From contig JALGYY010000035.1 in the NCBI GenBank assembly GCA_025782575.1, positions 20,670 through 84,669 of the forward strand: 64,000 nt of DNA, given 5' to 3'. Shown here piece by piece: positions 4,812 to 40,031 of this stretch; position 1 is the stretch's first letter, and every line of letters begins with the position of its first letter. The DNA is from a bacterium (GTDB lineage Bacteria > Orphanbacterota > Orphanbacteria > Orphanbacterales > Orphanbacteraceae). Position numbers and translations under genes: made by a program. The notes below the pieces were generated by a model. It was not told the DNA's origin. It was given only the letters and a program-made list of their open reading frames with translations, and ran no database searches.

Positions 4812-6026
4812 ATGAGAGCACTTGAGCCCGGAAGAGAATACCCGGCAACAGTCGCCGGATTCCTGCCCGGAAGAAGGGTGATTCTTGATATCGGTGGAGA
4901 CACGTATCTTGCGTGGACCGATCTTCCGCTCATCCGGGGTTCCCGAATTCGTACCAGGGCGGAGCGGGCGAAGGGCGGGATCTGTCTCAAACTGCTTGAC
5001 CAGGAAGATCACTCAGGCGACAGAGACCATTCCTCCCACGCTGGTGCAGATGAGTTGGATCGCCTGATCGAAGCCGTTGCGACCGAAGGGGGTCGAAAGC
5101 CGGCCGCCGAAGTCGTCAACCAGATCCGGTATTGCCTGAGGTGGGCCGATTCCCGGCTCGACAATGAGGCAGTCCCTCTCACCAAGATCGAGAAAACCGT
5201 TCACACTGTCGTGACGCTGTTCCAGCGCCGGGTACCTGTCCGGCCCCGCACATTGAGGGCGCTCGAGACCTGCGAGGAAGCGAGGCTCGGCACCACCCTG
5301 GCCCATCTGGAATCGAGCCTCCTGCAGACGGCCGATTCGATTGAGGGCCCGCGAGCGATCACTATGGAAAACCTGGCCAGGGAAGCGGCTCGGTTCTTCC
5401 ATCCGATCCGGTCGGACCGGGCGACGTTTTGTCTGGAGCCTATCGTGCGTAAGGCGGGCTACTTGCTCGAGTCTGATCTCACAGCCCTCGGCAGGCATGA
5501 CTGGCGATCGGTCGAAGACTTTCGCGAACGGAGTCTGAAGGCGTTTCTGCTTCTCTCCCGATCGGAGCTGACTGTTTTCCGGTCCTGCACATCTCCCGGA
5601 CTCGGAGAGAAGGGGAGAAGGATTCTGGAACGAGCCGTAGCCTGGTGTAATCGATCACTGGAAGTTCTCGAGGGTCTCCAGATTCTGAACCTCCCCACAA
5701 CCGACGGCAGTAAAGTCACGCCTACCTATCAGATCCCCGCGACGTTGAACGGGCGGCGCGCGACTCTTCATCTGATCGTCTCCCCGGAACGCTATCGCTT
5801 CTGGCTCGACCGTGGATCGAAGGATCCCGTGGGTGCGCAGGTCGAACTCAACGGGAATCATTTCGCCGTCCAGGTTTTCGGAGAGGCTGAATCGGCCTGG
5901 GAGCTGGAAGCTACAAAGTCGAGCCATCGCTTTGATGCCACTGTCACGGTGGAATCAGCCGGCGAGGAGTCTTTTATCGACCTTGGCCGGAGCTTGCCGG
6001 ATCGGAGGCTGAATCTTGAAGTCTGA
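4812..6026 (+). CDS. Hypothetical protein, possible divergent hook-length control (FliK-like) protein
   Basis: 404 aa with no NTP-binding motifs, so it is not FlhF or FlhG. N-terminal motif 'ATVAGFLPGRRVILDIGGDTYLAWTDLPLIRGSRI' and C-terminal 'ATLHLIVSPERYRF...AQVELNG' loosely resemble FliK-type segments. It sits between fliA and the rod genes. Confidence 0.5.
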   Translation: MRALEPGREYPATVAGFLPGRRVILDIGGDTYLAWTDLPLIRGSRIRTRAERAKGGICLKLLDQEDHSGDRDHSSHAGADELDRLIEAVATEGGRKPAAEVVNQIRYCLRWADSRLDNEAVPLTKIEKTVHTVVTLFQRRVPVRPRTLRALETCEEARLGTTLAHLESSLLQTADSIEGPRAITMENLAREAARFFHPIRSDRATFCLEPIVRKAGYLLESDLTALGRHDWRSVEDFRERSLKAFLLLSRSELTVFRSCTSPGLGEKGRRILERAVAWCNRSLEVLEGLQILNLPTTDGSKVTPTYQIPATLNGRRATLHLIVSPERYRFWLDRGSKDPVGAQVELNGNHFAVQVFGEAESAWELEATKSSHRFDATVTVESAGEESFIDLGRSLPDRRLNLEV

Positions 6027-13220: not shown

Positions 13221-14330
13221 GTGCGTATTCCGTCAAACTCCTTGCAGCTGAACATGACTTTCACGCTGAACCGGACCCTGGAACGCATTCAGCAGCAACA
13301 GATCCGTCTTGCCACCGGGAGGAGGATCCAGCGCCCCTCCGACGATCCCGGCGGAGTCATGCGGGCTCTCTCTCTCCGAAGGCAGATCAATGAGAACAGG
13401 CAATATCAAAGCAATATTCAGGACGGGCTGACATGGGTCACGGGTACGGAAGGGCCGCTGAACAACATAGTGGACCTTTTGAACGAACTGAAAGAAACCG
13501 CGATCCGGGCGGCGGATGACTCAGCGGATGATCGGGCACCGTTCGGCACGATCGTAGACGATCTCCTGAACGCGATGCTGGGGGAAAGCCGCGCCAAAGT
13601 GAACGGGCGTTATGTCTTTTCTGGTTTTCAGACAGACACTCCGCCGTTCATTACCAATAGTTCCATCAGCGATGAAGTATTAACAGCCGGGGCCACCGGG
13701 ACAGCCGTCAATCTGATCAACGCACGAATTGAATCGGGCACCGTCGTCCTTACCGATCTCTCCGGTGCAACGACCTACACCGAAGGGGTAGACTACTCCG
13801 TCGATTACGACGTGGGGACGATCACCCCCCTTTCCGGAGGGGCCCTCGCGAGCGGCACCGATTATCTCGCATCCTATGACACACAGAACACCAGTTCCGT
13901 AACTCCGATCGCCGATCTCGGGGGAGATGTTGTCAGGCAGATCGACTCGGACAGGACCATTCAGGTCAATCTCCTTGGCACTGATTTGTTCCAGGGGTCC
14001 GTGGACGTCTTCCAATTGACGATTGACTTGAAGAACGCACTTTGGAAGAACGATTCCGATGCTGTACGCGGCCTGCTCGATTCGATCGATCAAGCAATCG
14101 ATCACACCACAGAACAATTGGGAGTCATCGGCACTCGGGCCGCCTCCCTGCAACGAAACAATCAAATGCTGGCCTCCACCGAAATCGGGTTGGAGGAGTA
14201 TCTATCCTTGGTCGAGCATACCGATCTCGCCGAAGCGGTAATTCAGCTTCAGACCGAACAGGCCGCCTATGAGTCGGCTCTGGCCGCCACGGCCCGATTG
14301 ATGCAGGTCAACATGTTGAGCTTCCTGTAG
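13221..14330 (+). CDS. flgL: Hook-associated protein 3 FlgL
   Basis: Flagellin-like N-terminus 'RLATGRRIQRPSDDPGGV' and C-terminal 'EQAAYESALAATARLMQ'. GTG start after RBS AAAGGAGGA. Confidence 0.8.
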   Translation: MRIPSNSLQLNMTFTLNRTLERIQQQQIRLATGRRIQRPSDDPGGVMRALSLRRQINENRQYQSNIQDGLTWVTGTEGPLNNIVDLLNELKETAIRAADDSADDRAPFGTIVDDLLNAMLGESRAKVNGRYVFSGFQTDTPPFITNSSISDEVLTAGATGTAVNLINARIESGTVVLTDLSGATTYTEGVDYSVDYDVGTITPLSGGALASGTDYLASYDTQNTSSVTPIADLGGDVVRQIDSDRTIQVNLLGTDLFQGSVDVFQLTIDLKNALWKNDSDAVRGLLDSIDQAIDHTTEQLGVIGTRAASLQRNNQMLASTEIGLEEYLSLVEHTDLAEAVIQLQTEQAAYESALAATARLMQVNMLSFL

Positions 14331-14340
14331 GAGAATCAGA

Positions 14341-14811
14341 GTGAATGACAATCACCAGATGATCTCCACATCCCGCTTCGGAACGATTCAGGTATCCCCG
14401 GACAATCTCTACGAATTCCCCGGCGGTCTTTTTGGCTTTCCTGATTGCCGGCGGGTCGTGCTGATCGACCGGGATTCGGATGCACCGTTCCTTTGGCTCC
14501 AGTCGGTCGATGACGGGAATCTGGCCTTCGTCCTCATCGACCCGACCCTCTTTGATTCAAGCTACGCCCCGCCCGAGTCGCCGGAGGTTCTTACTTCGCT
14601 CGAGTGTCCTGATATCACCGAACTCGTAACTCTCGCGATCGTGGGAATCCCTGATGACGTAAGCGGTATGACCGCCAATCTCAAAGGCCCGATTCTGCTG
14701 AATCCGACGTCCCATCTGGGTAGGCAGATCATTCACAGCGGCGACTATTCTTCGCGGGTCCACATTCTTGACGCCATTCAATCCGGGTGCCGGGCATCCG
14801 GAAGCACCTAG
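14341..14811 (+). CDS. fliW: Flagellar assembly factor FliW
   Basis: 'FGTIQVSPDNLYEFPGGLFGFPDCRRVVLI...PFLWLQSVDDGNLAFVLIDP' matches the FliW family. Followed by csrA. Confidence 0.85.
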   Translation: MNDNHQMISTSRFGTIQVSPDNLYEFPGGLFGFPDCRRVVLIDRDSDAPFLWLQSVDDGNLAFVLIDPTLFDSSYAPPESPEVLTSLECPDITELVTLAIVGIPDDVSGMTANLKGPILLNPTSHLGRQIIHSGDYSSRVHILDAIQSGCRASGST

Positions 14812-14822
14812 CGAGAAGACCC

Positions 14823-15014
14823 ATGTTGCTCATCACAAGAAGATCAGGCCAGTCGATCCGAATCGGCGAAGACATCGTCATCACGATCCGGACCGTCCGA
14901 GGCAAGCAGGTTCAGGTTGCGATAGAAGCGCCACTCGACATCATCGTCGTTCGCACCGAGCTCCCCCCGAAGGAAATCGCCGGCGGGGCGGAGGAACCGG
15001 CCCATGATCGTTGA
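14823..15014 (+). CDS. csrA: Carbon storage regulator CsrA
   Basis: 'MLLITRRSGQSIRIGEDIVITIRTVRGKQVQVAIEAPLDIIVVRTEL' is a near-canonical CsrA. The ORF-track start at 14787 is an N-terminal over-extension. Confidence 0.88.
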   Translation: MLLITRRSGQSIRIGEDIVITIRTVRGKQVQVAIEAPLDIIVVRTELPPKEIAGGAEEPAHDR

Positions 15015-16143
15015 TCTCGATTGCCGCCATTTCCCCGGCGACAGGCCGTGCGTCCATCACAAGACTTCCGGGGCTATCTGTGAAACCTGTAAACATGGCG
15101 AGAAGGTCGGATTCCGAGTCCTGATTATTAAGCTCGATGCCCTGGGCGATGTCCTTCGGACCACGTGCATCCTTCCGGCAATCAGGAGCGAGTGGCCCAG
15201 GTGTCAGATCACATGGATTACCTCGCCTGAGGCGATCCCCCTGCTCTCCGGCAATCCACTGATCGATGAGCGCTGCTCACTGCATGATGCGCCTGCCCGC
15301 CTGGCCGCAGAGCATTTTGACCTTGTCCTCAATCCCGATGCCTCCAAACGAAGCGCCGCCCTGGCGTCGATGGCGAGTGCGAATGAGAAGCGAGGTTATC
15401 TGCTTCGCCCAGACGGCCAGGTCGTCCCCGCGAACGACGAAGCGGCTGACTGGCTCGTGCTGGGGGCGAGGGATGACATGAAGAAGGCCAACCGTGAAAC
15501 TTATCAGTCCCACATTCATCGGCAGCTATGCCTTGATCCGTCCGAGCAGCAAATCTCACTGATTTTGACAGCCTCCGAACGTGAAGACGCGCGCCGGCTT
15601 CTCGCTAAGTCAGGTGTATCGGAGCGACCGATGGTCGGATTGAACACCGGATCCAGCAAGAGATGGAAACACAAGAGCTGGATACCGGAGAGATTCGCGG
15701 AACTGGCTAGACTTCTTGCAGGAGAAAAGTGCGGACCGGTTGTTCTTATCGGCGGACCTGCGGAGCAGGATCAGAACCGCTGGATTGAAAAAGCGAGCGG
15801 TGGGTCGGCAGTGGCGATCGACACGGGGTCCGGCCTCAGAGCGTATGCGGCTCTCGTAGGATCGTGCGGCGTGCTCGTTACCGGCGACACCCTGGGACTC
15901 CACGTTGCGATCGCTCTTGAGCGGCGGGTGGTGGCGCTTTTCGGACCGACATCATCGTCGGAGATCGATCTATACGGCTGCGGAATCCGCGTGGTTCCCG
16001 ACCTGGATTGTATTTGCTGTTATCAAGGAGACTGCGATGTCTCTCCCCATTGCATGGAATCCATTTCTGTTGAATCGGTCCTTTCAAAAATTCTCGATCA
16101 GGCCGGCCTCGTCCCTGAGGGGATGCTCGCCCAAACCATCTGA
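15004..16143 (+). CDS. GT9-family glycosyltransferase (heptosyltransferase-like) with N- and C-terminal Cys clusters
   Basis: 'RVLIIKLDALGDVLRTTCILPAIRSEWP' is a GT9 N-domain signature. 'GPVVLIGGPAEQD' and 'GVLVTGDTLGLHVAIAL' are C-domain signatures. Cys motifs are C-x9-C-x9-C-x2-C (N-terminal) and C-x-CC-x4-C-x5-C (C-terminal). It overlaps the csrA stop by 11 nt. Confidence 0.75.
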   Translation: MIVDLDCRHFPGDRPCVHHKTSGAICETCKHGEKVGFRVLIIKLDALGDVLRTTCILPAIRSEWPRCQITWITSPEAIPLLSGNPLIDERCSLHDAPARLAAEHFDLVLNPDASKRSAALASMASANEKRGYLLRPDGQVVPANDEAADWLVLGARDDMKKANRETYQSHIHRQLCLDPSEQQISLILTASEREDARRLLAKSGVSERPMVGLNTGSSKRWKHKSWIPERFAELARLLAGEKCGPVVLIGGPAEQDQNRWIEKASGGSAVAIDTGSGLRAYAALVGSCGVLVTGDTLGLHVAIALERRVVALFGPTSSSEIDLYGCGIRVVPDLDCICCYQGDCDVSPHCMESISVESVLSKILDQAGLVPEGMLAQTI

Positions 16144-16151
16144 AGGAGGAA

Positions 16152-17162
16152 GTGAAGAAAATGGAGTTTACCGGCGAGCGACTCGTTCCCACGGCGGATG
16201 GCTGGGACGACCTCTTCTTCGAGCACATCACTCGCTATCGGTTCGCGGCGTCATTGGTGAAAGGCAAGCACGTTCTCGACGCGGGATCAGGGTGCGGTTA
16301 CGGCGCCTGTCACATGGCACGTCGCGGCGCTCAATCTGTTTCCGGGATCGATATCGCGTCGGAAGCGGTGAATTACGCACGTGAGCACTTCAAAGAGGAT
16401 GGTCTCCGGTTCGATACCGCCGACGTGCTCGACACCGGCCTCGAGACGGGGAGCTTTGATCGCATCGTCTCTTTCGAGGTTTTTGAGCATGTGGAGCGGC
16501 CCGATCGATTTCTGAACGAGATGAAACGTCTGCTCGCTCCAGGCGGCCTCTTTCTGGTTTCCACTCCCAACGTGCATACATATGTGGCCGGGGGCAAGGA
16601 CGGTGAGAATCCATTTCATGTAAAGGAATATTCCCCGGATGAATTCCAGGAGCTGCTGGAAGCGAGCTTCTCTGTTATTGAACTCTACGCTCAGACAGGG
16701 ACTGCCGGTATCGGAATCATTCCCTGTCACACAGGCGAAGACCGAAGCCCGGAATGCCACGCCCGTCTCGGGCTCGTTTTCCCACCCTCCGAATCTCCGT
16801 GGGGCGAACCGGCTCCCCCACGTGTCGACATCGACACATGCTCCTACATGATTGCGATCTGCGCCATGGAGCCGATCCCCGCCGACCTTCTTCCCTCGCC
16901 GGAATGGTACGTGCTCGGGGAGTCACTTTCCGGCAGGGATGCCGATTATCAGTCCGTTCAAGAGCTTCAGGAAAACCTGATCTCTCGCACGCGGTGGGTA
17001 GAAGAGTTGCAGCGAGAAATCGATCACCGTGATCAGACGATTCGCACACTCCAGGCAGAATTTGATGACCGATCCAGATGGGCGCTCGAACTCGATGCGA
17101 AAGTCAGGGAGCTGACCAGCCAGATCGGCAAGCTTAAGAACCGGGCGGGAATCAGCCCGTGA
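16152..17162 (+). CDS. Class I SAM-dependent methyltransferase with C-terminal coiled coil
   Basis: Motif I 'VLDAGSGCGYGA'. Post-I acidic 'GIDIA'. Motif II/III 'IVSFEVFEHV...LAPGGLFLVSTPN'. C-terminal heptad region 'WVEELQREIDHRDQTIRTLQAEFDDRSRWALELDAKVRELTSQIGKLKN'. Confidence 0.8.
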   Translation: MKKMEFTGERLVPTADGWDDLFFEHITRYRFAASLVKGKHVLDAGSGCGYGACHMARRGAQSVSGIDIASEAVNYAREHFKEDGLRFDTADVLDTGLETGSFDRIVSFEVFEHVERPDRFLNEMKRLLAPGGLFLVSTPNVHTYVAGGKDGENPFHVKEYSPDEFQELLEASFSVIELYAQTGTAGIGIIPCHTGEDRSPECHARLGLVFPPSESPWGEPAPPRVDIDTCSYMIAICAMEPIPADLLPSPEWYVLGESLSGRDADYQSVQELQENLISRTRWVEELQREIDHRDQTIRTLQAEFDDRSRWALELDAKVRELTSQIGKLKNRAGISP

Positions 17163-17184: not shown

Positions 17185-20100
17185 ATGAAGACAGTGTCAA
17201 AGGGACCGAAACGAGCGCCGGTCATCGCCATCTTGAGTTATAATCGGGTGAAACTGCTCCGAAAGTGCATCGAGAGCATTTTCGCCAACACGAGCGCCGA
17301 CTACCGAATCTGCGTGGTGGACCAGGCTTCCACCGACGGTACGCGAAACTATCTGAAGAAACTGGGTGACCGGATCGATCATATGGCCACCGACGAGAAT
17401 CACGGCTTCGTCGATGGAAACAATCTCGTCATGGAGGAGTACGCCGAAAGCGACGTCGTACTCCTGAACAATGACACGGAAGTTCAGCCCGGCTGGCTCA
17501 CGGCTCTGGTCGATCGTGCCTATTCTGATCCGACGATCGGAGTGGTCGGGGCTAAACTGATCTATCCGGACGGGCTCCTGCAGGCAGCCGGATGTGAGAT
17601 CTTTTCTGACGCTTCGGGTCGGGAAATCGGCAAGTACGACGATCCCTCTCGTTTTATTTACAACCAGACCGCCGACGTTGACTACTGTTCGGGTGCTTGC
17701 TTGTACGTGAAGCGTGAGACTCTGAATCAAACAGGGTTCTTCGACACACAATACGCGCCGGCCTACTGGGAGGATACCGACCTCTGCTTCGCCGCTCGTG
17801 ACGCGGGCTATCGGGTGGTCTACGAACCACAGTCGGTCGTCGTTCATCACGAGGGGGGGAGCTTCGGCTCGGCCCATGCCCAATCCCGTTCAAGCGAACT
17901 TCAAGATCGAAACAGACCGAAATTCATCAAGAAATGGTCCAGCGCGCTTGCTGCGCAACGAGACAGTATCTATCGCATCCCCGGGCAGGAAGGGAAGGAG
18001 AAGATCCTCGTCATCCTGCCGTTCCTCCCGCTTTACGATCGAGCTGCGGGAGAGATGCGCTGGTTCCATACTCTGAAACTGTTAACGAAACGCTATCAGG
18101 TCGTCTTCCTTGCACGAAACGGGCAGGACGGCATCAAGTACATCAATCCCCTCGAGAAGATGGGCATTACCGTATTCCATACCGATCAGGAGCGGCTCCG
18201 CCAGCTCGGGACTGAAATGACAGGGCCCGTCTGGATCGATTTTCCCGCCTTGCTGCAAGCGAATGATTTCAAGGCGGTAATCGTCGGCTTCTATCATGTG
18301 GCCGCCCAGTACTACAAGGATATCAGGCAGTTTTCTCCTGAAGCGAAACTGATTGTCGATTCATTCGATGTAGCCTTCCTGCGCGAAAGGCGCCGGGCGG
18401 AGATCACAGGCAAGGACGAGGACCTCTGGCATGCGGAGGAAGTGCGGCGGATTGAACTGGGATGGTACGAAAAGTTCGACATGGTTCTCACGGTTACCGA
18501 AGAAGACCGAGACATTCTTCTAAAGGAGAACCGGTCCCTGGCAATCGGTATCTCGACAGATATTCATCCCGTTCCGGAAGGAGAATGGACACCGGGGCGG
18601 CATGATCTCGTTTACATCGGAAACTTCAAGCATCAGCCCAACGAAGATGCCGTCCTCTATTTTGCTGAAGAGGTCCTCCCGAAGATTCACGAGGAGATCC
18701 CGGACGCCCGGTTTCTCATTGTCGGCAATGCGCCGACCAAGAAGATCAAAGCATTGGCAGGCGACCGCGTTGTGGTTACCGGATTCGTCCCCGATATCGT
18801 TCCCTACCTCCGGCGGGCGGCTGTCTGTGTCGTCCCTCTTCGATACGGAGCCGGGCTGAAAGGCAAGGTCGGCCAGGCGATGGCAGCGGGCTGTCCCCAG
18901 GTCATGACTTCGATCGGTGCAGAGGGGATGGGCATCGTCCACGAAAGAGACGCTCTGATCGCCAATGGTGCGAATGAATTTGCTCGAGAGACGATTCGAC
19001 TCTATCAGGATCCCGCCATGCAGGAGAAGATCGCCCGGAATGCCAGACAACTGGTGGCCGATCGATACAGCTATGAGAAAGCGGCGGAGTATTGGGAGGA
19101 AGTGTTCGAGTTCATCGAGAACAAGACACCGCCGGAAATTAGCAGGCTGGAGGAGAAAAAGATATCCGGAACAGGATATCTCCGCCTGGCGGAGAGCCGG
19201 TCGATCGTCCCCCGGGTAAGTATCATCATTCCCGTACTCGACAATCTCTCCCTCACTACGAGCTGCTGGACGAGTATTCGCAAGAACACGCGAATTCCGT
19301 ATGAGCTCTTGATCATCGACAACGGCTCCACAGAACCCATCGCTCTCGATGCAACCCTGAACAACTATCGTTGCATTCGAAACGATACGAATCTCGGGTT
19401 CGCCGCGGCGATCAATCAGGGTATTCGAAACAGCCAGGGAGAGTACGTCGTTCTCCTGAATAACGACACGGTCGTCACGCCCGGTTGGCTGGAGAGCATG
19501 ATCAAACACATCGACAGGGATTCGACGATCGGCATCGTCGCCCCCCTCACCAACTACGCCAATACGGAGCAACGAATTCCGGTTGACTACCATGACGAGA
19601 AGGAGCTTTACCGGTTCAGCAGCAAACTGGCCAAACGGAACCGTGGACAGAGCAGACAGCTTCGGAAGGTGATCGGGATGTGTATGGTAATTCCGCGGCG
19701 GGTGATCGAAGAAATCGGGCTCTTCGATGAGCGCTTCGGTATCGGGAATTTCGAGGATGATGATTTTTGCCTCCGGGCCCGGTTGGCGGGATACAAAGTA
19801 GTCTGTGCGCAGGATTCCTATATCCATCATGAGGGAGGCAAGACCTTCGAAAGAATCGATTTGGACTATGCGGCTCTTCTCAAGACCAACTCAGAAATCT
19901 ATATGAAGAAATGGGCTCCCGTTCTTTCCAGAAGCTCGAACCAGGAGGAGCCCGAGGTTGCGCCACTTACGACGATTCTCTATCAGGATAATGGATCATT
20001 GGTACCTGAGGAGATTCAGTCCACCCTGGAGGATCTCCCCGCCGGTACGGATCTCAGAATTCTCTGCACGGATGAGTCGAAGTTCTCCGTCTTTCAAGAC

Positions 20101-21090
20101 AGCAAGATCCCGATCGACAACGTCCCCGCGGGAGATTTCTATGGCCGCCTCGACGAGATCATCCGATCGTGCCGGTCCCCGTTTATTATGCTGCTTTCTA
20201 CTTCAATCAAAGGTGAGAAGGGATGGTTCGACCAGATGCTCGAACTGGCCGAGGCACGGCAATCCTTCGGTATGATCCTCCCGAAGACGGATGACTTCGA
20301 AGGACACTGTCTCCTGATCAAGAGAAGCGATTATCTCACGGCAGGCGGATTCTCAACTCTCTTCCATTCTGCGGCCGGGTGGGCCGATCTCGCGGGTCGC
20401 ATGGAAGCCGGGGGATCACCCACGAGCATCGCTCGCGGAGCGAAGGTTGCGTATACCGGCGGTCCCGACGGGTTCTCACGGATCGATGGCCGGGAGCGCA
20501 AGGCGGTAACCCGTCTGCATGAGGCTGCGGGCCATTTCGCATCGGGAGACAACGCGAGCGCGGAAAGCTGCATACGTGAATCGCTCGCCTTCAAGCCGGA
20601 CTACACGTCCGCTCTCCATCTTCGGGCCGCTCTTCATATAGCGGCATCCGAACCGGGCCTCGCCGAGTCCGATCTCGCCGAGATACTCAGGATCGAGCCG
20701 AATGACTGCCGTGCCCTTAACGCCCTCGGTTGTCTCGCCTTCAATCAGGGGAGTACAGGTGAAGCCGAGAAGCGCTTCCTGGAAGCCTTGGTGCATGAAC
20801 CGAAGAACAGCGACGTTCTGCGGAACCTGGCCGATATTTACTTCGGACGTGGAGCGATCGTCCAGGCGATGACGCTATACGGCCGTCTGGTCGAACAGGA
20901 TCCCGACAATACGGAAACGTATCTGGCCCTCGGCGCCTGGTTCGAGGAGTTGGGGGAGTGGGAGGGAGCGGCAGACTGGTACAGGCAGGCTCTTCGCGTA
21001 GATGAGACGTGCGACGGGGCGAGCGAGCGACTCGCGGCGATCACCGCCGCGGGTGCAGGCAGCAACACCGGCTCGAGCCATGTCCACTAG
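17185..21090 (+). CDS. 1301-aa multidomain glycosyltransferase: GT2 - GT4 (GT-B) - GT2 - unknown domain - TPR repeats
   Basis: GT2 domain 1: 'AILSYNRVKLL...VVDQASTDGT...VLLNNDTEV'. GT4: 'VYIGNFKHQPNEDAV...FLIVGN...VCVVPLRYGAGLKGKVGQAMAAGCPQVMTSIGAEG'. GT2 domain 2: 'VSIIIPVLDN...LLIIDNGSTEP...VVLLNNDTVV'. C-terminal TPR-like repeats (aa ~1110-1270). Confidence 0.8.
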   Translation: MKTVSKGPKRAPVIAILSYNRVKLLRKCIESIFANTSADYRICVVDQASTDGTRNYLKKLGDRIDHMATDENHGFVDGNNLVMEEYAESDVVLLNNDTEVQPGWLTALVDRAYSDPTIGVVGAKLIYPDGLLQAAGCEIFSDASGREIGKYDDPSRFIYNQTADVDYCSGACLYVKRETLNQTGFFDTQYAPAYWEDTDLCFAARDAGYRVVYEPQSVVVHHEGGSFGSAHAQSRSSELQDRNRPKFIKKWSSALAAQRDSIYRIPGQEGKEKILVILPFLPLYDRAAGEMRWFHTLKLLTKRYQVVFLARNGQDGIKYINPLEKMGITVFHTDQERLRQLGTEMTGPVWIDFPALLQANDFKAVIVGFYHVAAQYYKDIRQFSPEAKLIVDSFDVAFLRERRRAEITGKDEDLWHAEEVRRIELGWYEKFDMVLTVTEEDRDILLKENRSLAIGISTDIHPVPEGEWTPGRHDLVYIGNFKHQPNEDAVLYFAEEVLPKIHEEIPDARFLIVGNAPTKKIKALAGDRVVVTGFVPDIVPYLRRAAVCVVPLRYGAGLKGKVGQAMAAGCPQVMTSIGAEGMGIVHERDALIANGANEFARETIRLYQDPAMQEKIARNARQLVADRYSYEKAAEYWEEVFEFIENKTPPEISRLEEKKISGTGYLRLAESRSIVPRVSIIIPVLDNLSLTTSCWTSIRKNTRIPYELLIIDNGSTEPIALDATLNNYRCIRNDTNLGFAAAINQGIRNSQGEYVVLLNNDTVVTPGWLESMIKHIDRDSTIGIVAPLTNYANTEQRIPVDYHDEKELYRFSSKLAKRNRGQSRQLRKVIGMCMVIPRRVIEEIGLFDERFGIGNFEDDDFCLRARLAGYKVVCAQDSYIHHEGGKTFERIDLDYAALLKTNSEIYMKKWAPVLSRSSNQEEPEVAPLTTILYQDNGSLVPEEIQSTLEDLPAGTDLRILCTDESKFSVFQDSKIPIDNVPAGDFYGRLDEIIRSCRSPFIMLLSTSIKGEKGWFDQMLELAEARQSFGMILPKTDDFEGHCLLIKRSDYLTAGGFSTLFHSAAGWADLAGRMEAGGSPTSIARGAKVAYTGGPDGFSRIDGRERKAVTRLHEAAGHFASGDNASAESCIRESLAFKPDYTSALHLRAALHIAASEPGLAESDLAEILRIEPNDCRALNALGCLAFNQGSTGEAEKRFLEALVHEPKNSDVLRNLADIYFGRGAIVQAMTLYGRLVEQDPDNTETYLALGAWFEELGEWEGAADWYRQALRVDETCDGASERLAAITAAGAGSNTGSSHVH

Positions 21091-22585
21091 GCACTCGCTC
21101 TCTGTCTGCTATATCGCGAAGAATGAATCGGACAACCTCGCTCGATCGATCGCCTCGATTGCCTCGGTCGCCGATGAGATTATCGTCGCCGACACAGGAT
21201 CGTGCGACGGAACACAGGATCTTGCCCGCAGTCTTGGAGCGAGGTTGATCGATATTCAGTGGACGGATGACTTTTCCCAGGCGAGAAACGCGTCACTCGA
21301 AGCGGCGAGCGGCGACTGGGTACTTTGCCTGGACGGAGACGAACGATTTGAAACAGGGCAGAACAAAACTCTCCGACGTCTGATCCGTCCGGGGGGGGGA
21401 GGGGGAGGAGACGCCTACACCGTCTGTCTCGTGAGCCGACTGGCAGGTGATCAGACCGGACAGGTCTACGAACATCTTTATCCCCGCCTGTTTCGAAACC
21501 GTCCTTCTTATCGATTCCGGGGCCGGGTTCATGAGCAGATCGGTCCTTCCATCATGCAGGCGGGAGGCAAAATCAAGCCGTCCGGACTTCGCATCGATCA
21601 TACAGGCTACACTCTTCAAGGTGACGCCCGTCTTGCGAAATCAAGAAGAAACCTAACTCTTCTTCTTCTCGATGAGAATGACAATCCCCATGACGGCCTC
21701 ATTCAATATCATTTAGGGGAGACCTATTCCGTTCTCTCCGACAACGTCCGCGCGGTCCTTGCCTATGAAAATGCGATACGGTCCGGCGAACTGAGTATGA
21801 ATCACATGTCGTTCGCCCATCAGAATCTGGCAGCAGCCGAGAACAAGTTGGGAAACCATCGGGAAGCGGAGGAACACGCTCGCCAGGCGATTCGCATCGA
21901 CCGGACAGCCGGCCCCGCCTACCTGATCCTTGCTTCCGCCCTCATTCGCCTCGGAAGCTATGATGAAGCGGTCCGCGCCGCCGATCGCCACCTGAAAGTG
22001 AAGCCCGGCGCGCATGCAGCCGTTCGCTTCCGTCCGGATCCTGCCAAGGCCTGGTTTCTTAAAGGGGAGGCTCTTCTCCGCGGAAAGCGGGTCGACGAGG
22101 CACTCGAATCGGCCGAAAAATCGGTTCACGCCGCTCCCGGGCTTGCGGCGGGGTACCGGCTTCGAGCAAGGGTCCATATTGCAACTGGAGAGGCTCTGAG
22201 GGCAGAGGCCGACTGGAAGAAGGCCCTCTCTATCGATCCGCGTGATCCGACCACGTGGCAGGCGCTCCTGACCCTCCAGACAAGAAGCGGCACACCGGCC
22301 GCCCTTCTTTCAACAGCCGATCGAGCGGTCGCGGCCACCGGCCATCCGTCGCTTTTCGAGATTCAGGCCTCGCTCCGGCTTCAATCGGGCGATCAGACAG
22401 GTGCGATTCAGAGTTTCGAGTCCGCGCTCCGCGGATCGTCCGACCCGGCCCGGATCCACAGGCTTCTTGCCGGGCTTCACCACCGGAACGGCCACGCGGA
22501 ACGCGCCCGCTATCATTTCGATCAGATCAACCAGATTGTCTCCTCTACGGTCATCCCTTCCCACGAGCATCAAAAAACTCCGTAA
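21080..22585 (+). CDS. GT2-family glycosyltransferase with C-terminal TPR repeats
   Basis: 'LSVCYIAKNESDNLARSIASIASVADEIIVADTGSCDGT' is a WaaE/KdtX-like GT2 N-terminus with a 'DGDE' motif. A TPR region follows (aa ~230-500). The internal ATG at 21080 is used; the 21002 start overlaps the preceding gene. Confidence 0.75.
   Translation: MSTRHSLSVCYIAKNESDNLARSIASIASVADEIIVADTGSCDGTQDLARSLGARLIDIQWTDDFSQARNASLEAASGDWVLCLDGDERFETGQNKTLRRLIRPGGGGGGDAYTVCLVSRLAGDQTGQVYEHLYPRLFRNRPSYRFRGRVHEQIGPSIMQAGGKIKPSGLRIDHTGYTLQGDARLAKSRRNLTLLLLDENDNPHDGLIQYHLGETYSVLSDNVRAVLAYENAIRSGELSMNHMSFAHQNLAAAENKLGNHREAEEHARQAIRIDRTAGPAYLILASALIRLGSYDEAVRAADRHLKVKPGAHAAVRFRPDPAKAWFLKGEALLRGKRVDEALESAEKSVHAAPGLAAGYRLRARVHIATGEALRAEADWKKALSIDPRDPTTWQALLTLQTRSGTPAALLSTADRAVAATGHPSLFEIQASLRLQSGDQTGAIQSFESALRGSSDPARIHRLLAGLHHRNGHAERARYHFDQINQIVSSTVIPSHEHQKTP
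21391..21405 (+). repeat. Homopolymeric tract G9-A-G5 inside GT2-TPR coding sequence (encodes Gly6)
   Basis: Direct reading: ccg ggg ggg gga ggg gga gga gives 'PGGGGGG'. Confidence 0.8.
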
Positions 22586-22600
22586 ACCACGCGCCAGGGG

Positions 22601-22628
22601 TCAAGTTCTCCCTCTCTCTTGCGATTAG
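22601..22628 (+). promoter_or_regulatory. Candidate sigma-28 (FliA) promoter for flagellin: TCAAGTTC-N11-TGCGATTA
   Basis: 6/8 match to the TAAAGTTT -35 and a CGAT-core -10 with 11-nt spacing. It lies about 115 nt upstream of the fliC ATG. Confidence 0.4.
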
Positions 22629-22743
22629 ATCTACAGAAGAAGATTCATAGGGAATCACCGGTTGCTCACGGATGAATAACCGACACAGTGCGGCAGGGAC
22701 GCCAAGAGAACTTCGTGAGATTTCACGAAAGGAGAATGCGGAA

Positions 22744-23586
22744 ATGGCCGGTGCCGATCTTTCTAGGATTAACACAAACGTAGCCGCCCTGAATGCGCTG
22801 AAAGCCCTCCGGGACACTAACCAGAAACTTGCTATCCACCAGCTGCGCCTCGCGACCGGTAAGCGTATCAACAGCGCCGGCGAGGATCCGGCGGGTCTCG
22901 TCTTCGCCAAGCGTCTCGAGTCACGTGCCCGCGGCCTTGCCGTTGCACGGGACAACGTAGGTGATGTTCAGAATCTGCTTTCCACCGCTGAAGGCGGCGC
23001 GCAGAGCATCAGCGAGATTCTTCTCACAATGAAAGAGAAGATCCTGCAGGCAGCGAATGATACGCTGGGAACTGAAGAGCGGGCCGCGGTCGAATCGCAG
23101 CTCGATGACCTCGCCGCGGAAATTGACGATATTGTCGGCGCCACACTCTGGGGGGGCCAGCAGCTCCTGGACGGCTCCTTCACCGGGAAGCAGTTCCAGG
23201 TCGGTGAGCGGGCAGCCGATACGATGAGCTTCGGTGTCACCCAGAACCACGGTGCTGCGACGCTCGCCGTCGCCGACTCTGATCTCGACGTCAGCAGCGC
23301 GGCGACTTCGTCGACCGCTCTCTCCAATGTCAATACCGCAATCAACACGATCAACACGAGCCTCCAGAATCTGGGGTCGACCCAGCTCCGTGTGGGGATC
23401 AAAGAGGCGAACATCTCCGTGTCGATCAACAACCAGCTTGCGGCTCATAACCGGATCTTTAACGCCGATATGGCCGCCGAGCAGATCGAGCTCTTGAAAA
23501 ACTCCCTCCTGCAGCAGTCGGCGACCGCGATGCTCTCCCAGGCAAACCTCGCGCCGCAATCGGTGTTGCAGCTGATTCTGGGATAA
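22744..23586 (+). CDS. fliC: Flagellin
   Basis: N-terminal D0/D1 'INTNVAALNALKAL...LRLATGKRINSAGEDPAG'. C-terminal 'AEQIELLKNSLLQQSATAMLSQANLAPQSVLQLI'. RBS AAAGGAGAA then ATG at 22744. The ORF-track start at 22672 is an over-extension. Confidence 0.9.
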   Translation: MAGADLSRINTNVAALNALKALRDTNQKLAIHQLRLATGKRINSAGEDPAGLVFAKRLESRARGLAVARDNVGDVQNLLSTAEGGAQSISEILLTMKEKILQAANDTLGTEERAAVESQLDDLAAEIDDIVGATLWGGQQLLDGSFTGKQFQVGERAADTMSFGVTQNHGAATLAVADSDLDVSSAATSSTALSNVNTAINTINTSLQNLGSTQLRVGIKEANISVSINNQLAAHNRIFNADMAAEQIELLKNSLLQQSATAMLSQANLAPQSVLQLILG

Positions 23587-23663: not shown

Positions 23664-23681
23664 AAGGAGTAGGTGCAGACC

Positions 23682-24053
23682 ATGAAAGAGGGACCGATGA
23701 CATTACAAGGAAACGTATTGCCAGGTGAGGCGGCCGAAGCCTACGGCACTTCCGCGATTGAAGGGGCCACGCCCGGCCGGCTCGTACTCCAGACGTACGA
23801 CCATATTATCAAGTGCTGCCGGAAAAAGGACGTCGGGAGAGGAAAGAAAGGTCTGGTCGAGCTGCAGAGCGCGCTGAACCTGGACTACCTCGAAATCTCC
23901 GGCCCTCTCTATCGCATCTATGAATACTGCACCGACCGCCTGCGAGATGAAAAATTCGCAGAAGTGGCACAAGTAATGACCGACCTTCGCTCATCCTGGT
24001 CCAAGATCGTGAGGATCTCCGAGAGGGGTGGCGGGGGGAACAGCGAAGGCTGA
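23682..24053 (+). CDS. fliS: Flagellin-specific export chaperone FliS
   Basis: 'AYGTSAIEGATPGRLVLQTYDHIIKC' and 'LDYLEISGPLYRIYEYCTDRL' match the FliS family. ATG at 23682 with an RBS is preferred over the GTG at 23673. Confidence 0.8.
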   Translation: MKEGPMTLQGNVLPGEAAEAYGTSAIEGATPGRLVLQTYDHIIKCCRKKDVGRGKKGLVELQSALNLDYLEISGPLYRIYEYCTDRLRDEKFAEVAQVMTDLRSSWSKIVRISERGGGGNSEG

Positions 24054-24058
24054 CCGGG

Positions 24059-25477
24059 ATGATTGAATTTCAATCCATACGATCTGCTGAACTGAACCAG
24101 TTCCTGGAAGTCTTTCAGGCACGGTCGACGTTTCAGCTGGATTCGGTCAAGAGCCTTCGAGACGCGCTGGAACTGAAGACCACGATCTATAACGATCTGA
24201 AGACCAAGCTCAAGGCCCTGAAAAAAATGACGGACGACTTCTCCCAGACGGGTAGTCTTTCCGCATTCGGGGCGAAGACCGTATCGGTGAGCGACGAGTC
24301 GATCCTGCGGATCTCCGCGGGCGGCGGTTCCTCGGCATTGTCTCACTCGATTCACGTCGATCAGCTCGCAAGGGCTCACTCCGTACTCTCTGACCGATAC
24401 ACACAGACCGGTACAGAGTTGAGCGCGGCTCATGCCGGCACCAAGAATTTCTCGATCACAGTAGATGGAACACAGTACGACGTCAGCGTGGTCATCAATT
24501 CGGGCGACGACAATCAGACTGTTCTGAAATCCGTCGTCGACGCGATCAATGCCGTGGACGACATCGAAGCGGTCGGATCCAGCATCAACGACACCGATAC
24601 GACGACGAAATTGTCCATCACGAGTGAGGAGACCGGGACGAAGAATAAAATGACGTTCACGGACACCGACGGCCTTCTCGCTTCACTCGGAGTGACCAAT
24701 ACATCGGCCGCGACGGATACGGCCGGTGGGTACATCTACCAGGACTCCGGCGGAAGCGAGTTGGACGCCAAGCTCACCGTGGACGGCATCAATATCGTTC
24801 GCTCGAGCAACACCCTGACCGATGTGGTCGCAGGGGCGACTCTGGAGCTTCTCGGAGCCCAGGAGGCGACAGACCCTGACGTATCGGTAAGTATTGCGGT
24901 CGACACTGAAGCGATTACCGCCAAAGTGCAGGAATTCCTTGATGCATTTAATGATGCCCATGGATATATCACAGCCAAAGTCAACGTCGATCCGACCACT
25001 TATGCACGCGGCGACCTTGCCGGAGACTCTCCTTACGTTAATCTCTGGCAGAATCTCCGCTCATCCATGGCGAATTCAGTCCCGAGCTCCTCGAGCGAGG
25101 TTTTCTCGGCCCTTTCCCAGATCGGGATCACCTCCGGAGCGACCGGGAATTTTTCGATTACCAATACGTCCAATTTCGATGATGCCCTGAACGAGAATCT
25201 GGACGCCGTTGAAGCACTGTTCAACGCATCTGACGGCATCGCTGTCCGACTCGAAGAGCTCCTGGATAACTACACGGATGTCAGCGGGATCATCGACTCG
25301 AGTAAGAATTCCGTAACCGACAGGGTCGATCTTCTGGACAATAAGATCGACCGGCTTGAGCGACTCCAGGCAATGGAGGAGAAGCGCCTGATCGAACAGT
25401 ATGGCGCGATCCAGGAGGCCACGATTTTGAATCAGTCGATTCTCCAGATGGTGAATAGCCTGTATTCAGGATTCTAA
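24059..25477 (+). CDS. fliD: Flagellar filament cap protein FliD
   Basis: 472 aa. N-terminal helical region, central S/T-rich beta region, C-terminal coiled coil 'DRVDLLDNKIDRLERLQAMEEKRLIEQYGAI'. Position after fliS. Confidence 0.7.
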   Translation: MIEFQSIRSAELNQFLEVFQARSTFQLDSVKSLRDALELKTTIYNDLKTKLKALKKMTDDFSQTGSLSAFGAKTVSVSDESILRISAGGGSSALSHSIHVDQLARAHSVLSDRYTQTGTELSAAHAGTKNFSITVDGTQYDVSVVINSGDDNQTVLKSVVDAINAVDDIEAVGSSINDTDTTTKLSITSEETGTKNKMTFTDTDGLLASLGVTNTSAATDTAGGYIYQDSGGSELDAKLTVDGINIVRSSNTLTDVVAGATLELLGAQEATDPDVSVSIAVDTEAITAKVQEFLDAFNDAHGYITAKVNVDPTTYARGDLAGDSPYVNLWQNLRSSMANSVPSSSSEVFSALSQIGITSGATGNFSITNTSNFDDALNENLDAVEALFNASDGIAVRLEELLDNYTDVSGIIDSSKNSVTDRVDLLDNKIDRLERLQAMEEKRLIEQYGAIQEATILNQSILQMVNSLYSGF

Positions 25478-26896: not shown

Positions 26897-27643
26897 GTGG
26901 CGAAGGAAAAGCGGGAGGTAATACAGGAAGAAAACGCTTCCTGGCTCGCGACATTCGGTGATCTCGCCACACTGCTATTCACGTTCTATTGCCTGATCTA
27001 CGCATCCTGCACTTATCGGCCCGGGGATTGGGAGACAGCCAAGAGCGCCGCCCTCGAGAAGATGCTCTCCGTGCTTGCCGGCGGTTCGAAGATGAGTCTC
27101 GTGGAAGGTCAGGGAGACGGCCCGATGACCGGCCAAAACGGGGTGATCCCGCTGTTCGCCTCCGGATCGGAGATGGCGGAGGAAGAGCGTAGCCGGATGT
27201 CCGATCGGATCGAAGAGGCGAGCGCCCTCATGCCGGAAAAGGGGGGCATCGAATTGGAGGGAACCGAAAGCGGCATCGTGTTTCGGATCGGAGACGCCAT
27301 CGTGTTTCCATCGGGGAGCGTCACGCCGGCGCCGAGAACGATGCCCTTCCTCGCGGCGGTGGCAGCGCTGATCCGTGTCAGACCGGCTGAAGTGACCGTC
27401 GTCGGTCATACCTGTGACCTCCCCACATACAGCTTGCGCTACCCGTCCAACTGGGAGTTATCCGGATTCCGGGCGGCTGCAGTCGCGCGAGAACTCATCC
27501 GAGAGGGGCTCGGAGATTCCAGTCTTAAGATCCGAGCCGCCGGTGAGCATTATAGCCGAGTGCCGAACCTCGATGAGGAGAGCCGCAGGCTGAACAGGCG
27601 AGTCGAGATCCGAGTCGATTTCCCCGAACTTATCGGAGAGTAG
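26897..27643 (+). CDS. motB: Flagellar motor stator protein MotB (OmpA-like)
   Basis: GTG start. TM 'WLATFGDLATLLFTFY' with the conserved Asp. C-terminal OmpA/MotB peptidoglycan-binding domain 'NWELSGFRAAAVAREL...LNRRVEIRV'. Confidence 0.8.
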   Translation: MAKEKREVIQEENASWLATFGDLATLLFTFYCLIYASCTYRPGDWETAKSAALEKMLSVLAGGSKMSLVEGQGDGPMTGQNGVIPLFASGSEMAEEERSRMSDRIEEASALMPEKGGIELEGTESGIVFRIGDAIVFPSGSVTPAPRTMPFLAAVAALIRVRPAEVTVVGHTCDLPTYSLRYPSNWELSGFRAAAVARELIREGLGDSSLKIRAAGEHYSRVPNLDEESRRLNRRVEIRVDFPELIGE

Positions 27644-27645
27644 AC

Positions 27646-28371
27646 ATGGCGGGCAAGAAGCTGAAGCCGCTAATTATCCCGGCAGATGAGTCATTCGAAA
27701 TGACTTATATTGCGCTCATGCTCCTCCTGCTTTGCTTCATGGTCATCATGGTCTCACTCGCCCAGATCGATGATCCCCGATTCAAAGAGGCTATCGGTTC
27801 CGTTCGAGGCGCGTTCTCCTTTCTTTCCAACAAACAGGAAAGCAGCATGATCGCGAGTGGAGGCCCGGGTGTCCTGTACCACATGAAGGGTGAGGAATCC
27901 AAAAAGCATAGAGTAGAGAGGCTGAGGGAGACTCTGGAGGCGAAGCTGGGTGACGACTTTAAGAGCCTCGTCAGGATCGAGGAGACCGAGCACGGCATCC
28001 AGGTAACACTCGGCGGCCTGATTCTCTTCGACCCGGGCGCAGCGAATACGCGGACGAATGCAGCTCCGGTTCTCGATGAAATCGCCGCCATCGCCCAGGA
28101 ATGGACCGCTCGTGTGATCGTCAGCGGCCACACCGATGACCTCCCGATCCGAAGTCCTGTCTATGCGTCGAACTGGGAACTGTCGGTCAGCCGTGCGGCG
28201 ACCGTCGTCCGGTATCTCGAAAACAAGGGTGTGCCGGGTACCGACCTTACCGCTCTAGGATTGGCCCATACAAGACCACTGGTTCCCAACAATTCAATTG
28301 TCCACCGACTATTGAATCGACGTGTGGAGATCTCTATTGAGTACGATGATCCCTCGTCCGATCTGTTGTAG
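27646..28371 (+). CDS. Second MotB-like OmpA-domain protein lacking the conserved TM aspartate
   Basis: TM 'EMTYIALMLLLLCF' has Asp replaced by Ala. C-terminal OmpA-like 'NWELSVSRAATVVRYL...LNRRVEISIEY'. Confidence 0.65.
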   Translation: MAGKKLKPLIIPADESFEMTYIALMLLLLCFMVIMVSLAQIDDPRFKEAIGSVRGAFSFLSNKQESSMIASGGPGVLYHMKGEESKKHRVERLRETLEAKLGDDFKSLVRIEETEHGIQVTLGGLILFDPGAANTRTNAAPVLDEIAAIAQEWTARVIVSGHTDDLPIRSPVYASNWELSVSRAATVVRYLENKGVPGTDLTALGLAHTRPLVPNNSIVHRLLNRRVEISIEYDDPSSDLL

Positions 28372-39218: not shown

Positions 39219-40031
39219 CTACTGAGCACCCTTCCCGGTGAGGACAACGACGACCGTTCGGAGCAGAATCCTGAAATCCTGCAGCCAGCCCTTGCGGGAT
39301 ACGTAGTCCAGATCGTACTCCAGTTTGACTTTGACATCATCGAGACACGTGTCGTACTGGTGCTCCACCTGGGCGAGTCCCGTAATGCCCGGTTTGACGC
39401 GGAGTCGCAACGCATAATCGGGCATTTCCCCGATCAGATCCCTCACGAAGGTCGGGCGCTCGGGCCTCGGCCCGACAAGGCTCATATCCCCTCTCAGCAC
39501 ATTGAAGAACTGTGGCGTCTCATCGATCCTCAGGTGACGCAGGATCTTACCCAGAAACGTGATACGCGGATCATTCCTCGTAGCCCAGATAGGGCCGACA
39601 CGATTCTCCGCACCGTCCACCATGGTTCGGAATTTATAGATGATAAACGGCTTTCCCGGAAGGTCGAGGGTCCGTCGATCGTATACATCATAGAAACTAT
39701 TGGACGCCGATGTGACGGGGAGGGGGCTCCGCCGATTCAAACCGATTCTGACCTGCCTGTAGATGATCGGCCCCGGCGAAGTCAGACGCACGAGAAAACC
39801 GACCAGACTGTAGAGAGGCAGCAGGCAGATCACGGCGAGTAGAGCGAGAAAGCGATCGGTGATCTCCTGGAGAAACGGGGGGTGGATCGGACCGTTGTCG
39901 AGGTGAGGCAGGGCGCCGGCAGTCACCTTGGAGAGGTCGATTACCTTGAGATCCGCTCTCGTCAAGCCGCTCTTCTCCCGCGACCGATCGCGCGCCGCCC
40001 CTCGTGTTAGTCCGTTACGTCTCTTCATCAC
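39219..40031 (-). CDS. Polyprenyl-phosphate sugar phosphotransferase (bacterial sugar transferase, WbaP/EpsB C-terminal-type)
   Basis: 'IYRQVRIG...PFIIYKFRTM...VGPRPERP...KPGITGLAQV' are Bac_transf signatures. Confidence 0.85.
   Translation of the reverse strand: MMKRRNGLTRGAARDRSREKSGLTRADLKVIDLSKVTAGALPHLDNGPIHPPFLQEITDRFLALLAVICLLPLYSLVGFLVRLTSPGPIIYRQVRIGLNRRSPLPVTSASNSFYDVYDRRTLDLPGKPFIIYKFRTMVDGAENRVGPIWATRNDPRITFLGKILRHLRIDETPQFFNVLRGDMSLVGPRPERPTFVRDLIGEMPDYALRLRVKPGITGLAQVEHQYDTCLDDVKVKLEYDLDYVSRKGWLQDFRILLRTVVVVLTGKGAQ

Follow-up and report, generated by a model that had tools for sequence, protein, structure and literature searches.

In Clostridioides difficile type B, a gene cluster next to fliC encodes the glycosyltransferases (GTs) GT1 (CDR20291_0241), GT2 (CDR20291_0242) and GT3; GT1, whose gene lies next to fliC, adds N-acetylglucosamine (GlcNAc), and GT2, which is fused to a methyltransferase, adds two rhamnoses and methylates them (PMC5207246). 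In Listeria monocytogenes, GmaR serves both as the flagellin O-GlcNAc transferase and as the anti-repressor of MogR (PMC9638930), and two-hybrid assays have shown that Caulobacter FlmG needs its tetratricopeptide repeat (TPR) part to bind flagellin and that this part suffices for binding (PMC7591256). According to PMC13317340, which cites Unay et al., the TPR part of Maf-1 from Shewanella and other bacteria confers flagellin acceptor specificity, and the combination of a GT2-family domain with TPRs already serves as a heuristic predictor of flagellin GTs. GT-TPR enzymes and multifunctional elongases in flagellin glycosylation islands are, in other words, known already; flagellin glycosylation has been well studied for nonulosonic-acid systems (Maf, FlmG) and in a few pathogens, but scarcely in environmental phyla. 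Here we analyse a 64-kb stretch of bacterial DNA (contig JALGYY010000035.1, positions 20,670 to 84,669; 'the window', whose own numbering is used throughout), in which a gene for a 1301-amino-acid (aa) mega-glycosyltransferase (mega-GT; 17185..21090, + strand) is embedded in a flagellar gene cluster, directly upstream of a GmaR-like gene and flagellin. We propose that the mega-GT is most likely the cytoplasmic, TPR-docked elongating GT of a flagellin O-glycosylation cassette. What is new is the tri-catalytic GT2-GT4-GT2 arrangement with a conserved pseudo-GT, as well as the cross-phylum module that adjoins flagellin and pairs the three-domain core with a GmaR-like gene; neither a family model nor a paper describing this architecture or module was found in NCBIfam or literature searches.

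The open reading frame (ORF) of the mega-GT begins with ATG, 7 nt downstream of the Shine-Dalgarno sequence GGAAGGAG, and its domains follow one another in the order GT2a-GT4-GT2b-X-TPR. The Pfam matches that exceed the gathering cut-offs are two Glycos_transf_2 stretches (aa 14-230 and 676-889), Glyco_trans_1_4/Glycos_transf_1 (aa 473-640) and multiple TPR families (aa ~1110-1280). PF00535 scores 157.7 bits on the whole protein over two stretches, which separately yield 72.6 and 93.4 bits (cut-off 23.3). When 5.8 billion proteins were searched, the identical protein was returned from a 599-kb NCBI contig, together with 47 full-length homologs (1289-1381 aa, 45-59% identity, 96-99% query coverage) originating from independent NCBI, JGI, ENA and Logan assemblies; the few named ones are annotated as 'glycosyltransferase [Candidatus Eisenbacteria]', and relatives come from Candidatus Eisenbacteria and Krumholzibacteriia. 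Domain-profile mapping recovered the GT2a-GT4-GT2b-X-TPR order in 47/47 of them, and GC content is even over the region. A reading made from the letters of the window alone (the sequence-only reading) had described a single GT2-GT4-GT2-(unknown)-TPR polypeptide of 1301 aa, and its ORF coordinates proved exact and its domain order matched that of Pfam. The mega-GT is a real single-chain enzyme and not an assembly artefact: fusion through mis-assembly or frameshift, which that reading had named as its possible undoing, is ruled out by the 47 full-length homologs of the same domain order in independent assemblies. Since no transmembrane or hydrophobic segment is found in the protein by Kyte-Doolittle analysis (maximal 19-residue mean of 1.32), it is expected to be soluble and cytoplasmic. 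The 436-aa ORF found antisense and wholly within the mega-GT gene (18520-19830, - strand) most likely does not represent a gene but a shadow ORF cast by the GC-rich coding strand.

The mega-GT and its 47 full-length homologs make up a 48-member family set, on which we based the motif columns and profiles that follow. Both GT2 domains have the GT-A fold and belong to the LLNNDT / ED.D subgroup. GT2a (aa 8-262; 17206..17970, +; PF00535 E 4.7e-20) carries D46, N95-N96-D97-T98, E196-D197-T-D199 and H221-x-E223-G, and the columns of N95, D97, T98, E196, D197, D199, H221 and E223 are invariant in all 48 members. GT2b (aa 670-920; 19192..19944, +; PF00535 E 2e-26) carries D712-N-G-S, N759-N760-D761-T, E857-D858-D859-D860 and H881-H882, with D712, N759, D761, E857, D858, D859, D860, H881 and H882 equally invariant. 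Through their N-N/D-D-T and E-D-x-D motifs, the two domains thus possess both a DxD-type metal/nucleotide motif and an acidic catalytic base; going by what we know of GT2 subfamilies, we take NND to be a functional DxD variant. Loss of DxD and catalytic residues from two of the three GT domains, the other eventuality that the sequence-only reading had flagged, is therefore unsupported. The chondroitin polymerase K4CP is the best sequence match in the PDB for GT2a as well as for GT2b, the best matches of the latter also including GalT1.

The GT4 domain (aa 269-650; 17989..19134, +) has a complete GT-B fold. PF13692 matches it with 101 bits (E 9e-29, cut-off 27), Pfam covering the C-terminal half only, and an AlphaFold2 model built from a 47-sequence alignment is two-lobed and complete, with a mean predicted local distance difference test score (pLDDT) of 93.5 and a predicted template modelling score (pTM) of 0.90. 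Foldseek aligns ~400-436 columns of this model with full-length retaining GT4 enzymes at template modelling (TM) scores of 0.64-0.72, the matches being sucrose-phosphate synthase (SPS, 6kih), methylmannose-polysaccharide mannosyltransferase (ManT, 7qsg), BshA, PglA, MshA and PimA. All three GT domains are thus structurally complete by Pfam, AlphaFold2 and Foldseek, as had been proposed, with a caveat that concerns GT4. A canonical EX7E motif is absent from it: in the family motif PLRYGAGLKGK(V/I)G(E/Q)A the position of the first Glu is Gly throughout the family (RYGAGLKGK), while the second, which aligns with the E of 'EAMA' in 6kih, 5i45 and 2jjm, is Glu in 36/48 members and Gln in the mega-GT and its 11 closest relatives. 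In the mega-GT, where the motif reads PLRYGAGLKGKVGQAMAAG, this residue is Q564 (18874-18876). The E-to-Q change is clade-specific and accompanied, in the 12 closest family members, by L566M and I572Q; judging from this pattern, it may mark a change in donor specificity. In the CAZy classification GT2 enzymes are inverting and GT4 enzymes retaining, and so the three sites could form at least three different linkages. We dropped the assignment of donor sugars: the NCBIfam matches lie far below cut-offs, the PDB matches are generic, and the window has no sugar-nucleotide genes.

Between the catalytic block and the TPRs lies the X domain (aa 926-1095; 19960..20469, +), for which the sequence-only reading had suggested a degenerate fourth GT2. 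This is borne out by both profile and structure comparisons. Pfam gives no match in aa ~926-1095, PF00535 included, even at E<=10. An hhalign comparison of the X profile from the 48 family members with the GT2b profile, on the other hand, gave 99% probability (E 4.9e-18, 136 columns), and that with the GT2a profile gave 97% (E 8.7e-11); no match was obtained to the GT4 and TPR profiles. AlphaFold2 models aa 915-1100 with a pLDDT of 90.1 and a pTM of 0.86, and the top 50 PDB matches of this model in Foldseek are GT-A enzymes, nearly all of GT2 type (TM 0.6-0.69, E ~1e-7), among them the Leptospira GT 6p61, BcsA, WrtF, TarP, SpsA and K4CP. Domain-wise structure prediction, which had been put forward as a check, therefore yields a GT-A fold for X as it yields a complete GT-B fold for GT4. 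A novel fold and an extension of the TPR or GT-B parts were also considered for X and are ruled out, with hhalign finding GT2 profiles only and Foldseek GT-A folds only.

X has neither of the features expected of an active enzyme, the DxD-type motif and the catalytic base. Where NND would be expected it has S-T-S; the family consensus there is S-P/E-G, and an acidic residue is not conserved. W/L-x-D-L has taken the place of ED.D. Mean pairwise identity is 32% in X, 41% in the TPR part and 62-68% in the catalytic domains; X, evolving at about twice the rate of the latter, is nonetheless present in every clade member (48/48). A search with X only against 1.84 billion cluster representatives found 4 proteins; the sequence comparisons thus show X as a fast-evolving domain, the X-only search providing no functional clue. 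In the more distant homologs P0054 and P0056 there is a comparable degenerate fourth domain ('LSSD', no ED.D). X is a pseudo-glycosyltransferase module that has been conserved, most simply explained as a tandem copy of GT2b that has decayed; as far as sequence and model go, it would most likely have a non-catalytic role, lying between the catalytic block and the TPRs as a scaffold, a spacer or a module that binds the acceptor. The domain had been estimated at about 200 aa, which holds for the homologs (~200); here it measures ~170, owing to the deletion of ~37 residues near 20290 (aa ~1036-1040) that are kept in 47/47 homologs. The deletion is in frame, the missing segment corresponding to the TNYA...RGQ...KV stretch of GT2b, and the AlphaFold2 model is confident despite it. 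The peptide originally quoted for the domain is found at aa 927-1059.

The chain ends in a TPR array (aa ~1100-1285; 20482..21039, +) of about five to six repeats, recognised by Pfam as TPR_2, TPR_19, TPR_14 and others, with PDB matches to the TPRs of OGT and to consensus TPR proteins. Both lines of evidence agree with the array as first described. From this architecture we infer that the mega-GT could act processively, make a trisaccharide or longer product and bind flagellin directly through its TPRs.

The evidence for flagellin as the acceptor comes from gene order. In loci whose mega-GT is 45-59% identical to that of the window, the order FlgL-FliW-CsrA-GT9-methyltransferase-mega-GT-GT2-TPR-flagellin-FliS-FliD is identical, and other phyla provide three distant homologs (38-40% identity) of the GT2-GT4-GT2 core (aa 1-925), whose genes are in each case followed by a GT2-TPR gene and then by flagellin. 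The core is widespread and has accessory fusions: TPRs, N-terminal methyltransferases, sulfotransferases and extra GT domains. We scanned one genome per GTDB species, obtaining 80 loci, and assigned the locus classes by tblastn with the window proteins under a single high-scoring-segment-pair criterion, since the two GT2 domains cross-match; loci with adequate flanks were counted. A GmaR-like GT2 gene accompanies the colinear three-domain core in 29 of 30 loci, immediately following it in the same orientation in 27, and flagellin lies within 8 kb in at least 19. Among the two-domain relatives, the 11 GT4-GT2b loci have the GmaR-like gene in 9 cases and flagellin within 8 kb in 6, and the 15 GT2a-GT4 loci (Actinomycetota, Eremiobacterota, Niabella, Pedobacter), which are the internal control against which non-specific GT2 matches can be judged, have them in 3 and 0. 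Among the metagenome-assembled genomes (MAGs) that carry the three-domain core are those of Eisenbacteria/Krumholzibacteriia, Ignavibacteriota, Calditrichota, Bacteroidota and Nitrospirota, as well as of Desulfobacterota, Verrucomicrobiota, Bacillota, Marinimicrobia and Goldbacteria. The core, a GmaR-like gene and flagellin occur together in relatives of Melioribacter, Ignavibacterium or Caldithrix strains. Judged by its conserved genomic linkage to flagellin, the mega-GT family falls into the glycosylation-island class, and the gene context, conserved over several phyla, strongly supports flagellin as the protein substrate on which the mega-GT had been suggested to act. A further core homolog, L042, is encoded on a 2071-bp contig (JBGPQP010000038.1) binned as Candidatus Aenigmatarchaeota archaeon; this is probably a mis-binned bacterial fragment.

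The partner gene directly downstream encodes a GmaR/SunS-like GT2-TPR protein of ~501 aa from M27 (21080..22585, +), in which Pfam detects GT2 and TPR domains. With translation likely starting at M27 (21080), the gene shares 11 nt with the end of the mega-GT gene, and an overlap of equal length is seen in the homologous locus L001. Over aa 30-224 the protein matches the GT domain of Listeria GmaR (PDB 22ao, E 2.5e-24), with further matches to the peptide S-glycosyltransferases SunS (7msp, E 2.4e-13) and ThuS (E 3.3e-10) and a weak one to the NCBIfam SunS model, and its translation contains a DGD motif. At ~500 aa it is shorter than GmaR (637), and no PDB match to the linker/anti-repressor part of GmaR (141-637) was found in it at E<=0.001. 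One contig is represented twice in our set, as L001 (ENA) and L002 (NCBI), and in the NCBI copy a frameshift (~14052-15539) splits the GmaR-like gene into 259 + 236 aa; assembly or polishing probably accounts for the difference. After a 158-nt gap follows the flagellin gene (22744..23586, +; Pfam Flagellin_N/C), its start assigned together with a ribosome-binding site, which encodes a short D0/D1-type protein of 280 aa from M25. A central patch of this flagellin (~aa 183-198, 'DLDVSSAATSSTALS') retains its Ser/Thr/Ala-rich composition across an alignment of 5 orthologs while its sequence varies, which would be compatible with an O-glycosylated surface segment.

By its homologies the GmaR-like protein is the more likely initiating flagellin O-glycosyltransferase, and with a likelier initiator next door, the mega-GT would be an elongase and not a stand-alone system. 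In the mechanism we propose, TPR arrays would hold unexported flagellin in the cytoplasm, where the GmaR-like neighbour would add the first sugar to Ser/Thr in the exposed central patch. The mega-GT, docked via its own C-terminal TPRs, would then extend this sugar with its three active sites by at least three residues, possibly as a repeating unit, with X serving as a non-catalytic scaffold or an acceptor-binding spacer. The adjacent methyltransferase would O-methylate and perhaps cap the glycan, and the GT9-family enzyme of the cassette would contribute one more residue.

Several points weigh against this proposal. Every NCBIfam match of the mega-GT falls below cut-off, the matches including MftF, EpsD and a rhamnosyltransferase. 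With the first Glu missing family-wide and the second replaced by Q564 in the subclade, activity of GT4 is not guaranteed by its sequence. The whole case for splitting the work between an initiator and an elongator is the neighbour's homology to GmaR and SunS, and the mega-GT, having its own TPRs, could act directly on protein. The distance to flagellin is 8 kb or less in only 19/30 three-domain loci, a lower bound limited by flank length, and the 64-kb window contains no sugar-nucleotide biosynthesis genes (rml, Pse or other) from which a donor could be read.

One alternative is that the mega-GT itself initiates on flagellin and extends the glycan, the GmaR-like neighbour serving other sites or another glycan or being mainly regulatory. 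The presence of a TPR array in the mega-GT speaks for this, as TPRs give flagellin recognition in FlmG and Maf-1; GmaR is bifunctional, being also an anti-repressor (PMC9638930), and some distant core homologs carry N-terminal as well as C-terminal TPRs. Yet it is the neighbour alone that resembles known protein and peptide GTs (GmaR, SunS), whereas the GT2 domains of the mega-GT are nearest to GT2s that form poly- or oligosaccharides (MftF, EpsD, rhamnosyltransferase, chondroitin polymerase). The near-obligate pairing with the GmaR-like gene (29/30) suggests divided labour, and a mainly regulatory neighbour is hard to square with its lack of sequence similarity to the anti-repressor part of GmaR; we therefore consider initiation by the mega-GT unlikely.

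A second alternative is that the mega-GT makes a glycan that is not attached to protein, be it a cytoplasmic methylated oligo- or polysaccharide or a lipid-linked surface polysaccharide, its flagellar position reflecting co-regulation. Fusion of several GT2/GT4 domains is a usual feature of polysaccharide polymerases, MftF and methylmannose-polysaccharide mannosyltransferase are among the best NCBIfam and structural neighbours, and no link to flagella is seen for the two-domain GT2a-GT4 relatives in Actinomycetota, Eremiobacterota and Bacteroidota. However, there is no polyprenyl-phosphate GT, flippase, ABC transporter or polymerase in the cassette, the sole Bac_transf gene (39219-40031) being 18 kb off on the opposite strand. 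GTs that act on protein are typically marked by TPRs and a GmaR-like partner, and linkage to flagellin persists over several phyla even though other parts of the flagellar loci are rearranged, which leaves a non-protein glycan quite improbable. Least probable of all is a protein acceptor other than the filament flagellin, such as FlgL, FliD, the hook protein or a pilin. The cassette does sit between flgL/fliW and fliC/fliD, and the sequence does not reveal what the TPRs bind, but in the distant loci flagellin is the sole constant neighbour besides the GmaR-like gene, and flagellin has the exposed Ser/Thr-rich patch of conserved composition.

Beyond an elongating role in this one cassette, we put forward with considerable reserve, and as something that may well not hold, that the core and its GmaR-like partner constitute an undescribed cross-phylum two-gene system (MAGs of Eisenbacteria, Ignavibacteriota, Calditrichota, Nitrospirota, Desulfobacterota, Verrucomicrobiota and Bacillota), which would build a methyl-capped hetero-oligosaccharide or repeating polymer on cytoplasmic flagellin. 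In the Eisenbacteria branch, X would then be a glycan or acceptor reader that confers processivity or length control; such a reader may hold the nascent glycan in place between the flagellin bound by the TPRs and the three active sites.

The remaining genes of the cassette precede the mega-GT. The cassette, consisting of GT9, methyltransferase, mega-GT and GT2-TPR genes, is tightly packed between fliW-csrA and flagellin. The GT9-family, heptosyltransferase-like GT (379 aa; 15004..16143, +) is assigned by PF01075 (E 2e-20), PDB 3tov (E 1.4e-12) and its conserved position; all NCBIfam heptosyltransferase models stay below cut-off on it, and when it was considered as a TibC-like protein heptosyltransferase, its sequence matched LPS-type (lipopolysaccharide) GT9 structures only. 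Its termini, CRHFPGDRPCVHHKTSGAICETCKH at the N-terminus and CICCYQGDCDVSPHC at the C-terminus, are Cys-rich, which suggests putative metal-binding clusters. The class I S-adenosylmethionine (SAM)-dependent methyltransferase (336 aa; 16152..17162, +; Pfam Methyltransf_11/25/31) likewise has a conserved position. In the distant homologs P0097, P0100, P0101, P0109 and P0119, a methyltransferase is fused N-terminally to the core, providing a Rosetta-stone link between the methyltransferase and the mega-GT. Pfam finds a MAF_flag10 domain neither in the mega-GT nor in any other cassette gene, and genes of the pseudaminic and legionaminic acid (Pse/Leg) pathways are absent here.

Upstream of the cassette, the flagellar cluster comprises flhB, flhA, fliA, an unknown gene, flgF, flgG, flgA, flgH, flgI, flgJ, flgN, flgK, flgL, fliW (14341-14811, +; Pfam FliW) and csrA (about 14823-15014, +), the last being a small ORF with a CsrA-like sequence that overlaps the start of the GT9 gene and is called as CsrA in homologous loci. 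On the 3' side, flagellin is followed by fliS and fliD (23673..25477, +; Pfam FliS, FliD_N, FliD_C), a possible flgM, motA and two motB genes. These MotB paralogs stand in tandem after motA (26897-27643 and 27646-28371, both +), an arrangement kept in L001, L003 and L004. In the 5' untranslated region of flagellin (22690-22743), a short hairpin GGCA(A/G)GGA(N)GCC ('GGCAGGGACGCC' in the window) and a GGAG Shine-Dalgarno sequence are kept in six orthologous loci (the window, L001, L003, L004, L010 and L011); by their motifs, the two look like CsrA sites of a FliW-CsrA-flagellin partner-switch circuit. Further 5' of flagellin lies a candidate sigma-28-like promoter (22601-22627; TCAAGTTC-N11-TGCGATTA), which is not conserved in the alignment of ortholog upstream regions. 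Two ORFs on the + strand of the window remain without family assignment: one of 404 aa between fliA and flgF (4812-6026; no Pfam or NCBIfam match) and one of 548 aa (62115-63761; no Pfam match) after the E and F genes of a type II secretion system/type IV pilus.

The pairing of the core with a GmaR-like GT2-TPR gene, seen beside flagellin in many uncultured lineages, can serve as a rule for annotating hundreds of large proteins labelled only 'glycosyltransferase', and predicts complex methylated flagellar glycans in the organisms that carry it. As a single chain that combines a module for docking the substrate with three active sites, the mega-GT fusion is a compact system for glyco-engineering. 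X, in turn, cleanly illustrates a pseudoenzyme module within a carbohydrate-active enzyme.

Of the described systems, the flagellin glycosylation cluster of C. difficile type B appears to be the best analogue for a division of labour between initiator and elongator. As described, it too adjoins the flagellin gene fliC, glycosylates in the cytoplasm a short flagellin of ~280-290 aa, and has a GT2-family initiator followed by a multifunctional elongase coupled to a SAM-methyltransferase. The methyltransferase is fused in the C. difficile GT2 enzyme and in distant mega-GT homologs, whereas here it is encoded by a separate adjacent gene; furthermore, the mega-GT unites GT2-GT4-GT2, a pseudo-GT and TPRs in one 1301-aa chain, a GT9 is present as well, and linked rml or other sugar-nucleotide genes are missing. 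The likeness to GmaR, an N-terminal GT-A domain with detectable homology followed by TPRs, belongs to the GT2-TPR neighbour; the mega-GT shares with GmaR only the catalytic-plus-TPR principle, its GT2 domains being of another subgroup (LLNNDT / ED.D) with no detectable sequence homology. FlmG and Maf-1 resemble the mega-GT in having a TPR module fused to a GT for cytoplasmic flagellin docking. Yet FlmG and Maf transfer single nonulosonic acids by one catalytic domain (GT-B-like in FlmG, MAF_flag10 in Maf), while in the mega-GT the TPRs lie C-terminal to four GT-type domains. Several GTs alternating on one chain are familiar from the Escherichia coli K4 chondroitin polymerase K4CP with its two GT2 domains, and WsaE of the Geobacillus S-layer glycan, composed of a methyltransferase and two rhamnosyltransferase domains, couples methylation to extension or termination. 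Both differ from the mega-GT in acting on free or lipid-linked glycan acceptors and in having neither TPRs nor linkage to a flagellin gene, and the linked polyprenyl-phosphate transferase and export genes that mark the Wzy/ABC-transporter polymerase class (WbdA, K4CP-like) are absent from the cassette and the flagellar cluster.

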